Assembly: GCA_964417755.1 (NCBI GenBank)
Contig: CAYQJH010000001.1
Coordinates: 1,921 to 65,920 of the forward strand
DNA: 64,000 nt
Direction of reading: 5' to 3'
Source of the DNA: an uncultured Planctomycetaceae bacterium
Lineage (GTDB): Bacteria > Planctomycetota > Phycisphaerae > SM23-33
Part shown: one piece after another, positions 40,879 to 41,259 of the stretch
Numbering within the stretch: position 1 is the first letter of the stretch
How the letters are laid out: every line of letters begins with the position of its first letter
The notes under the pieces: generated by a model
Databases searched by the model: none
Seen by the model: only the letters and a program-made list of their open reading frames with translations
What the model was told of the DNA's origin: nothing
Made by a program: the position numbers and the translations under genes

Positions 40879-41259
40879 TCATCTCTTGAACACCAGCTTG
40901 ACGAGTTTATCCAGGCGGGCGCGCTTGATGTAATGCATGCCGCCGAATTTCATGATCTCGCGAATCGCTTGGCGCTGCTGCGGCCTGTAGCAATGAACCT
41001 GGCAATCCTTGCACTTGGGCTTGGGGTCCATCGGGCATTTGCGCCGTCGCTCGACGGCATACTCCAGCGTCGCGCGGCAGGCCGGGCACAGGCTATCGTT
41101 GTGGTGCAGGCGTCTCGCCTGAGCATCCTCAGCCAACTGCGGACTTGCAGGCAAGATGCCTGCACCACAATTATGATTCTCCCGGCAGTATAGCGCGGTA
41201 AACTCGCGGAGAATCTCGATGTCCTGCTCGATGGCCTGATTCTTATCCGTCATCTTCAC
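40879..41259 (-). CDS. ygbA: Nitrous-oxide-stimulated-promoter (YgbA) family small Cys-rich protein carrying an in-frame ~20-aa insertion
   Basis: YCRENHN ... LCPACRATLEYAVERRRKCPMDPKPKCKDCQVHCYRPQQRQAIREIMKF matches the family pattern YCR-HHG-x5-LCxxC..CP...KP.C..C.VHCY. The extra CGAGILPASPQLAEDAQARRLHH segment maps onto repeat copy 41099-41175. Confidence 0.6.
   Translation of the reverse strand: MKMTDKNQAIEQDIEILREFTALYCRENHNCGAGILPASPQLAEDAQARRLHHNDSLCPACRATLEYAVERRRKCPMDPKPKCKDCQVHCYRPQQRQAIREIMKFGGMHYIKRARLDKLVKLVFKR
41099..41175. repeat. Repeat family B copy lying inside the ygbA-like coding sequence, in-frame
   Basis: gtggtgcaggcgtctcgcctgagc...cttgcaggcaagatgcctgcaccacaa. The same GGTGCAGGCG/CGCCTGCACC core occurs in intergenic copies. 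Confidence 0.55.

Follow-up and report, generated by a model that had tools for sequence, protein, structure and literature searches.

Why does a ygbA-like gene of an uncultured Planctomycetaceae bacterium encode 23 residues that a near-identical orthologue does not, and what is the DNA that specifies them? The gene lies on the reverse strand of the 64,000-nucleotide (nt) stretch analysed here (contig CAYQJH010000001.1 of assembly GCA_964417755.1, positions 1,921 to 65,920), referred to below as the window. The original prediction, made from the letters alone, was that a palindromic repeat had inserted in frame within a nitric oxide (NO)-response gene. It seems likely, with a probability of roughly 80%, that a doublet of repetitive extragenic palindromic (REP) units inserted into a permissive loop of ygbA, and that the insertion is polymorphic among strains and probably tolerated. 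Repeat homology, presence or absence among strains, the reading frame, conservation of core residues and the place of the insert in the predicted fold support this reading directly.

Filled and empty alleles of ygbA

The 23 residues (CGAGILPASPQLAEDAQARRLHH) occupy positions 31-53 of the window YgbA, after helix 1 (YCxxxH) and before the LCxxC motif. A near-identical orthologue of 101 residues (P0002) lacks them, and the gap in the alignment coincides exactly with residues 31-53, bearing out the claim that the segment is extra. A second protein from the same database search (P0001, 124 residues) carries the 23 residues. The short protein is encoded on five contigs from five samples (L001-L005), all with the identical order of Fe-S gene, ygbA and hcp, whereas the long one is encoded on a single ENA contig from an independent assembly (L006). 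The original prediction would have been undermined by the same segment in orthologues free of the repeat; it was looked for, and P0002 and its five contigs lack it.

The window and L001 are colinear, with 99.4% identity over 3005 nt and 98.7% over 1877 nt, and the sole structural difference between them in 4.9 kilobases (kb) is the replacement of 10 nt by 79 nt (Table 1). Alignments of L001-L005 to the window by BLAST break exactly at 41170 and 41090. The empty allele reads CATAAT, GAGGAAGAAA, TGTGCCC, and the filled allele reads CATAAT, TGTGGTGCAGG...CCTGCACCACAA followed by CGATAGCC, TGTGCCC. The filled allele is longer by 69 nt (23 codons), which keeps the reading frame. The proposal of an in-frame insertion thus stands as regards a dispersed palindromic repeat lying in frame, but not as a simple insertion, since 79 nt replace 10.

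Between contig L006 and the window there are 12 differences in 965 nt, none of them inside the insert, which is intact. A synonymous GCC/GCT difference groups the window with L006 against all empty alleles. An identical insert in an independent assembly, together with the shared synonymous single-nucleotide polymorphism (SNP), rules out an artefact of assembly and indicates a single origin of the filled allele. These comparisons point to an insertion that arose once and was then kept while the strains diverged somewhat. Five contigs from five samples carry the empty allele against two with the filled one, which makes the empty allele the commoner, and a metagenome scan for intermediate or further close ygbA alleles gave only relatives at 41-51% identity.

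The inserted DNA and its repeat family

The inserted palindrome has 34-nt arms that are 79% complementary. It consists of two 25-nt arms in inverted orientation separated by a 22-nt spacer, each arm with a hairpin of 8 base pairs (bp), and in the mRNA sense the doublet gives an RNA hairpin of -51.4 kcal/mol (z = -8.2). Inverted units, a short spacer and one long hairpin are the features of a REP doublet forming a hairpin (REPIN), and the ygbA doublet has all three. Its first T in gene sense (41170) is assignable to neither element nor target. Unit 1 contains a 21-mer (TTGTGGTGCAGGCGTCTCGCC) found exactly in at least 116 genomic stretches, and the compensated variant in unit 2 recurs in other genomes (GCAGGCAAGATGCC). 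The right arm, originally read as CGCCTGCACC, is in fact TGCCTGCACC, a change that is compensated in the stem. No Rfam family reached its gathering score anywhere in the window; E-value mode gave weak microRNA-precursor models only, as any long hairpin does. The integron attC site, also an imperfect palindrome of ~70 nt, was ruled out, the ends being TTGTGG/CCACAA and not RYYYAAC/GTTRRRY.

The window holds 11 units of this TTGTGG family at 6 loci, 5 of them intergenic as judged from the flanking Pfam-annotated genes. The motif GGTGCAGGC occurs 7 times versus 1.23 expected, and TTGTGGTGCRGGCG, when as many as 2 mismatches are allowed, has 13 matches versus 1.78 expected; no shuffle reached either count. 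Similarity between the ygbA copy and four intergenic doublets spans all 72 nt, spacer included. The inverted core had been said to be shared with four intergenic copies, and four intergenic doublets are present, at 56323, 28824, 48884 and 10448. The doublet at 48884-48951 abuts a copy of a second repeat family (CCACGGCACC), and the single unit downstream of hcp is also found in strain L004.

The doublet at 56323 lies within a 145-nt composite. Strain L133 lacks 56277-56421 in a BLAST comparison with the window, and an imperfect 9-bp direct repeat stands at the junctions. Elements with this palindrome are therefore polymorphic at two loci among ~99%-identical strains, which is evidence of recent mobility. 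A composite-like right flank (CCACAATCCCCCTGTAACTGA) follows a doublet in a groundwater Planctomycetota metagenome-assembled genome (MAG), and composite-related loci were seen in L018, L069, L094 and L118; to judge from these matches, the composite seems to be conserved as an element in its own right.

Table 1. Coordinates of the ygbA insertion, the surrounding genes and the other copies of the repeat in the window.
Feature	Position	Strand	Description
Segment unique to filled allele	41091..41169	-	79 nt where the empty allele has 10 nt (GAGGAAGAAA)
REP doublet (REPIN-like imperfect palindrome)	41099..41170		72 nt; from inverted-repeat search and alignment to four intergenic doublets
REP unit 1	41099..41123	+	TTGTGG foot and hairpin TGCAGGCG-TCT-CGCCTGAG; stem base degraded by 2 nt
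REP unit 2, inverted	41146..41170	-	TTGTGG foot and hairpin TGCAGGCA-TCT-TGCCTGCA; compensated G-C to A-T pair
8-nt tail	41091..41098	-	CGATAGCC (gene sense), absent from empty allele; between palindrome and conserved TGTGCCC
ygbA-like gene (YgbA_NO family), filled allele	40879..41259	-	126 residues from GTG; 124 residues from ATG at 41253
4Fe-4S ferredoxin-domain gene	41264..42073	-	Upstream, same apparent operon; Pfam Fer4 families; synteny kept in L001-L005
hcp (hybrid-cluster protein / prismane)	39066..40709	-	Downstream, same apparent operon; Pfam PF03063, 2.1e-171
Doublet, best match to ygbA copy	56323..56395		74-80% identity; intergenic, Gate-domain transporter gene (-) / epimerase gene (+)
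Composite enclosing the 56323 doublet	56277..56421		145 nt; outer inverted repeats GGCCTCAGTTACAGGGGGCAA and TTGCCCCCTGTACTGAGGCC
Doublet, degenerate	28824..28895		Intergenic between convergent peptidase U32 and pntA-like genes
Doublet, left arm degenerate	48884..48951		Intergenic between convergent ketoacyl synthase and hydrolase genes
Short doublet	10448..10506		Intergenic between divergent LysE and alaS genes
Single REP unit	39005..39029	-	Compensated stem TGCCGGCG/CGCCGGCA; closely follows hcp and precedes a terminator-like hairpin

Beyond the window, the 21-mer TTGTGGTGCRGGCGTCTCGCC is exact in at least 116 stretches (L007-L122) of species-representative genomes. The hosts are mostly Planctomycetota (Pirellulales, Phycisphaerae, Isosphaeraceae, Gemmataceae), with others among the Acidobacteriota, Verrucomicrobiota (Verrucomicrobiales), Hydrogenedentota and Armatimonadota (Fimbriimonadaceae). 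The contigs that bear it include long-read ones of 0.1-7 megabases, and several of the genomes hold multiple copies. A CACCACAA end (CCACAA), as of an inverted partner, lies within 130 nt of 66 of the 130 sampled units; about 7 of these do not belong to genuine inverted arms, leaving ~45% of the units with a real partner. Across 44 distinct partner arms, 87.8% of the cells of the 8-bp stem are paired, against 22-46% in slid controls. Five of the eight pairs have changed on both sides, with 33 such cells versus 9.6 in shuffles (0 of 500 as high), and the foot TTGTGG/CCACAA (columns 20-25) is invariant or nearly so. Where one strand has an A-C mismatch, the TTGTGG strand in many cases has a G-T wobble, which suggests that the hairpin matters on that particular strand.

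The 25-nt unit is a stem-loop within the 20-40 bp expected of a REP, with a covarying stem. Its 5' tetranucleotide is a GTGG variant and not the canonical GTAG, and the family is multi-copy in the window and in several of the scanned genomes, and mainly extragenic in the window. By these sequence features, TTGTGG units have the traits that mark GTAG-tagged REPs. An exact 21-mer over several phyla is unusual, as REP families are mostly species- or genus-specific. Some Pirellulales and Verrucomicrobiales genomes hold head-to-tail tandem arrays of the unit plus CCTCTGCGCCTCCTCCA, with a period of ~40 nt, which are not inverted doublets (L035, 5971-6266; L100, 2498-2844; L040; L080, 2095-2145). 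Clustered regularly interspaced short palindromic repeats (CRISPR) were ruled out for the arrays in L035 and L100, in which the whole period repeats and there are no unique spacers.

REPINs, bacterial interspersed mosaic elements (BIMEs) and the REP-associated tyrosine transposases (RAYT, TnpA_REP) were reportedly characterized by Bertels and Rainey in 2011 and by Nunvar in 2010. REPINs and RAYT transposases are also treated by Quentin et al. 2018 (PMC6006769). In both REPINs and the TTGTGG family, two inverted REP units make a long hairpin that is the apparent mobile unit, and the strand-specific structure of the TTGTGG unit fits recognition of single-stranded DNA. The two differ in that the searches here linked no RAYT to the TTGTGG family, and in that REPINs have been described outside genes and chiefly in Proteobacteria, whereas the TTGTGG family shares an exact 21-mer across phyla.

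Also among the closest described systems is the set of GTAG- and CGTC-tagged REPs reported from more than 80 species, including the Planctomycetes-Verrucomicrobia-Chlamydiae (PVC) superphylum (Di Nocera, De Gregorio & Rocco 2013, PMC3733652). Shared features are the 25-nt stem-loop, the unpaired 5' tetranucleotide, frequent inverted dimers, mostly extragenic location and PVC hosts. The GTGG tag variant is itself found in most GTAG-20 units of Opitutus terrae (PMC3733652). Intragenic copies were also already known: REP singles and dimers within genes encode 20-30 residues, with 70 O. terrae entries, and several lie in uvrA (PMC3733652). What differs here is the empty-site allele from sister strains, which shows the ygbA event and its irregular junctions. 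The peptides CGAGVSPA, AGETPAPQ and QARRLHH of the TTGTGG family are absent from the supplementary peptide list of that study (PMC3733652). The family is apparently not catalogued there, in a comparison made by encoded peptides.

Arrival of the doublet and state of the filled gene

A non-autonomous doublet of the REPIN/BIME type, composed of two inverted 25-nt units that each have a single-stranded TTGTGG foot and a GC-rich hairpin, probably entered ygbA in one lineage of an uncultured Planctomycetota species. The landing site is in the codons of the short turn between alpha1 (YCxxxH) and alpha2, which starts at LCxxC, with 10 nt exchanged for 79 nt (a palindrome of 71-72 nt and 8 further nt). 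The frame survives the gain of 69 nt, most frames of these GC-rich palindromes being without a stop codon, and the 23 added residues are predicted to form a surface excursion with a short helix, leaving the core intact. Known GTAG-REP biology suggests, by analogy, that mobilisation may occur on single-stranded DNA through a RAYT-type HUH tyrosine transposase.

Several observations weigh against this reading. At the ygbA junctions, unlike in canonical transposition, the target is not duplicated and 10 nt of it have given way to the new segment; because the coding flanks are ~99% identical, the replaced patch cannot be ordinary divergence. No open reading frame (ORF) with the HUH/Y1 motif of RAYT was found in the window, and all-versus-all clustering of ORFs in 116 repeat-bearing loci gave no convincing recurrent neighbour. 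The sole RAYT-like ORF in those loci, with motifs NHWH and YIERNP, is in a Planctomycetaceae MAG (L054, 580-1260, reverse strand). It scores 74.2 bits against NCBIfam REP_Tyr_transpos, below the cut-off of 80, and lies 1.6 kb from a TTGTGG doublet without being flanked by units. As regards the fate of the gene, the two alleles differ by 3 SNPs only, too few for a selection test. The insert also adds C31, H52 and H53 beside the probable metal site and puts a very stable hairpin (-51.4 kcal/mol) in the ygbA mRNA. A defect stays conceivable on account of the new Cys and two His by the Cys cluster and of the mRNA hairpin.

The irregular junctions could be explained by a different route, which has an appreciable though lesser chance of being correct. 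The segment would have come by template switching or gene conversion from another copy of the repeat, through TGTG microhomology, overwriting 10 nt and copying the donor flank CGATAGCC along; this concerns the mechanism of arrival only and not the identity of the element. Such a route would account for the replacement of 10 nt by 79 nt with no target-site duplication, and the element begins TGTGG where the downstream flank begins TGTGC. The 8-nt tail may likewise be donor-flank sequence. It matches CGGCAGCC at 6 of 8 positions, and CGGCAGCC directly follows CCACAA in two other copies, at 48951 (GACGGCAGCC) and, in reverse complement, at 56323 (AACGGCAGCG). However, the match is weak, lies at a shifted offset and, allowing for offsets and copies, is estimated to arise by chance about 1 time in 10. 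A search of the window and of 130 fetched loci for a donor with a CCACAACGATAGCC flank gave none, and the second polymorphic locus has a direct repeat at its junctions that resembles a target-site duplication, which fits transposition. Miniature inverted-repeat transposable elements (MITEs; Correia/NEMIS, ERIC, Nezha) are also short palindromic repeats without coding capacity that may form part of transcripts, and the 145-nt composite resembles them in its outer inverted repeats and its junctions like those of a target-site duplication. The ygbA copy differs in having no terminal inverted repeats beyond the REP units and no target duplication, the two features that define a MITE.

Whether the filled gene still functions depends on what the doublet has done to the protein. 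The window ORF belongs to the YgbA_NO family, matching Pfam PF11756 at an E-value of 6.9e-19 (68.6 bits, cut-off 25) and NCBIfam NF007714, 'nitrous oxide-stimulated promoter family protein', at 94.1 bits (cut-off 88). It has the Cys/His pattern of the family (YC...H, LCxxC, CP.DPKP.C..C..HC). All of C25, H29, C58, C61, C75, C83, C86, H89 and C90 are kept in the filled allele, and these nine are invariant or nearly so in 118 homologues. No relative in the PDB was found by sequence. Between the Fe-S gene, ygbA and hcp no terminator-like site was found, and one is present after hcp. Enterobacterial ygbA is a member of the NsrR nitrosative-stress regulon (PMC2884951, PMC5320621); homology and the Fe-S/hcp context suggest that the window gene may likewise respond to NO.

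Both alleles were modelled with AlphaFold from an alignment of ~117 homologues. The predicted empty protein has a mean predicted local distance difference test (pLDDT) score of 87 and helices at 2-27, 34-49 and 68-99; the filled protein has a mean of 77 and helices at 3-28, 59-74 and 93-124. The insert expands the alpha1-alpha2 turn in the model, with residues 34-42 at pLDDT below 50 and a short helix at 43-51. It is thus predicted to be a poorly ordered surface excursion that leaves the Cys/His-rich core unchanged.

The length of this loop varies in the family. Among 103 scored representatives at 50% identity, the site holds 4-12 residues in 75 and 19-38 in the other 28 (peak at 24-25), whereas 107 of 114 closer relatives have at most 12 (mode 6-7) and the nearest relatives all have short loops. 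The earlier statement that 5-8 residues are normal here thus holds for most members and not for the family as a whole. The long-loop members indicate that the alpha1-alpha2 site is permissive, and since it is a natural length-variable loop, the expansion is most likely tolerated and close to neutral. No sequence similarity was found between the natural long loops and the ygbA insert, and no REP-derived peptide was found among ~270 other YgbA proteins examined. Two representatives (P0014 and P0018) have loops of 36-38 residues at the same site, P0014 reading ...EQWGQRKWGQAPSSNNDIVAGRLFAVQSSIVNRQSSIL; these could be other repeat-derived insertions.

On sequence and model together, the filled ygbA is probably still functional and not a pseudogene. 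The original prediction had left open whether the copy is tolerated or decaying, and the first is favoured by an ORF intact in two strains 1.2% apart, by the retained invariant residues and by the place of the insert in a turn of a confidently predicted core, a site of variable length. That the filled gene is a decaying copy, inactivated by the insertion and with an ORF kept open merely by the recency of the event and the lack of stops in the element, is unlikely. Most frames of these elements are indeed open by composition: 4-6 of the 6 frames are stop-free in every window copy, so the open frame of the filled gene is unsurprising. The Cys and His residues added beside the Cys cluster, the hairpin of -51 kcal/mol and the low confidence of the predicted insert also accord with decay. 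Against it, the allele is intact and its insert unchanged in two strains with 12 differences over 965 nt, no invariant residue is lost, the predicted core fold is unchanged, the site takes 19-38 residues in other family members, and the neighbouring operon genes are intact.

Co-option of the insertion is more improbable still. In the malEFG operon of E. coli, REP hairpins set differential stability or translation, and the ygbA hairpin might by the same means affect translation or decay of the Fe-S/ygbA/hcp transcript. The insertion would then have been co-opted, the hairpin setting stability or translation in the operon, or the Cys/His loop altering metal or NO chemistry. A strong hairpin in mid-operon with no internal terminator and the persistence of the allele across strain divergence are compatible with co-option, but no evidence of selection was found, the empty allele is the commoner, and REP-derived peptides occur in no other YgbA of the ~270. 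Finally, chance GC-rich palindromy, which the original prediction had named as a way it could fail, or loss of an ancestral long loop by the empty strains is effectively refuted: long-loop variants exist, but no shuffle reached the observed motif counts, the 21-mer is exact in at least 116 loci, alignment to the intergenic copies covers the entire 72-nt element, natural long loops are dissimilar in sequence to the insert, and the nearest relatives are all short-looped.

In-frame repeats in other genes and their meaning

The insertion of a REP doublet into ygbA is an already-known kind of event, and what the locus adds is the empty-site allele, the irregular junction and the identity of the unit across phyla. 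At least two further clear in-frame cases were found among ~140 sampled copies of the TTGTGG family. In a Phycisphaerae uvrA (L020, 5307-5327), the UvrA_DNA-bind domain is interrupted in frame by one unit, which encodes AGETPAPQ, and in L073 (5094-5150) a Ser/Thr kinase-WD40 protein has a dimer (SCGAAVPAARAGETPAPQ) in frame within its Pkinase domain. Rickettsia palindromic elements (RPE), reportedly described by Ogata et al. in 2000, a study that PMC3733652 also cites, are likewise in-frame palindromic repeats that add a peptide at permissive surface sites in genes that stay functional. They differ in being longer (~100-150 bp) and confined to Rickettsia, and their likeness to the ygbA case is functional only.

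A second repeat family seems to have entered another gene of the window. The AlaS encoded at 10920-13784 (forward strand) is ~48 residues longer than seven Planctomycetota relatives, its closest proteins being 60-68% identical and named as from Phycisphaerae, Planctomycetaceae or Planctomycetota MAGs. The extra stretch (12945-13125) falls precisely within the variable loop that precedes the EFCGGTH motif. Its DNA is a cluster of REP-like hairpins of the second family, with the foot GGGTGS/GCACCC and stems CATGGCGGC and CGTGGCCGC. The palindrome, with arms at 12952-12988 and 13082-13118, has a DNA fold of -60 kcal/mol (z = -4.4). One unit matches an intergenic copy at 34851-34881, and CCACGGCACC, also of this family, occurs 7 times in the window versus 0.11 expected. 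By sequence, the alaS stretch represents a second in-frame palindromic-repeat insertion, in an essential gene.

Other repeats share the window. Dispersed short periodic motifs (CCGGAGCC, CTGAAGCC, GTTGTCGTT) occur in both orientations at 10590-10910, upstream of alaS, at 40784-40832 in the ygbA-hcp spacer, and at 58657-58794, near 58.7 kb. Two intergenic sites, 44918-45000 and 53697-53870, hold large inverted structures built of tandem 8-nt GGTTRAYT repeats (GGTTGACTGGTTAACC...). A 55-nt inverted pair (42156-42210 and 56214-56268, 87% complementary) is built of periodic AATGACGAA and TTCGTCATT; one member is upstream of the Fe-S/ygbA operon region and the other beside the 145-nt composite, and the pair is also seen in L001 and L132.

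The two ygbA alleles constitute a natural before-and-after pair, the same gene with and without a REP doublet in ~99%-identical strains, and illustrate the entry of such repeats into genes and the kind of site at which they are tolerated. The alpha1-alpha2 turn of YgbA is marked as one such permissive site. Annotators who meet an unusual loop expansion in a planctomycete protein should consider that it may stem from a repeat, and the junctions of such events need not resemble canonical transposition. A broader proposal is more doubtful: that a single REP family spans Planctomycetota, Acidobacteriota, Verrucomicrobiota, Hydrogenedentota and Armatimonadota, and that REP doublets repeatedly colonise protein loops in frame. 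If this were true, one REP/transposase system would have spread between phyla, or the hairpin would have a conserved host function. REP doublets, as in ygbA, uvrA and the Ser/Thr kinase, with the second family in alaS, would then be a regular source of strain-level variation in protein loops. The identity of the unit across phyla is the part most deserving of dedicated study.

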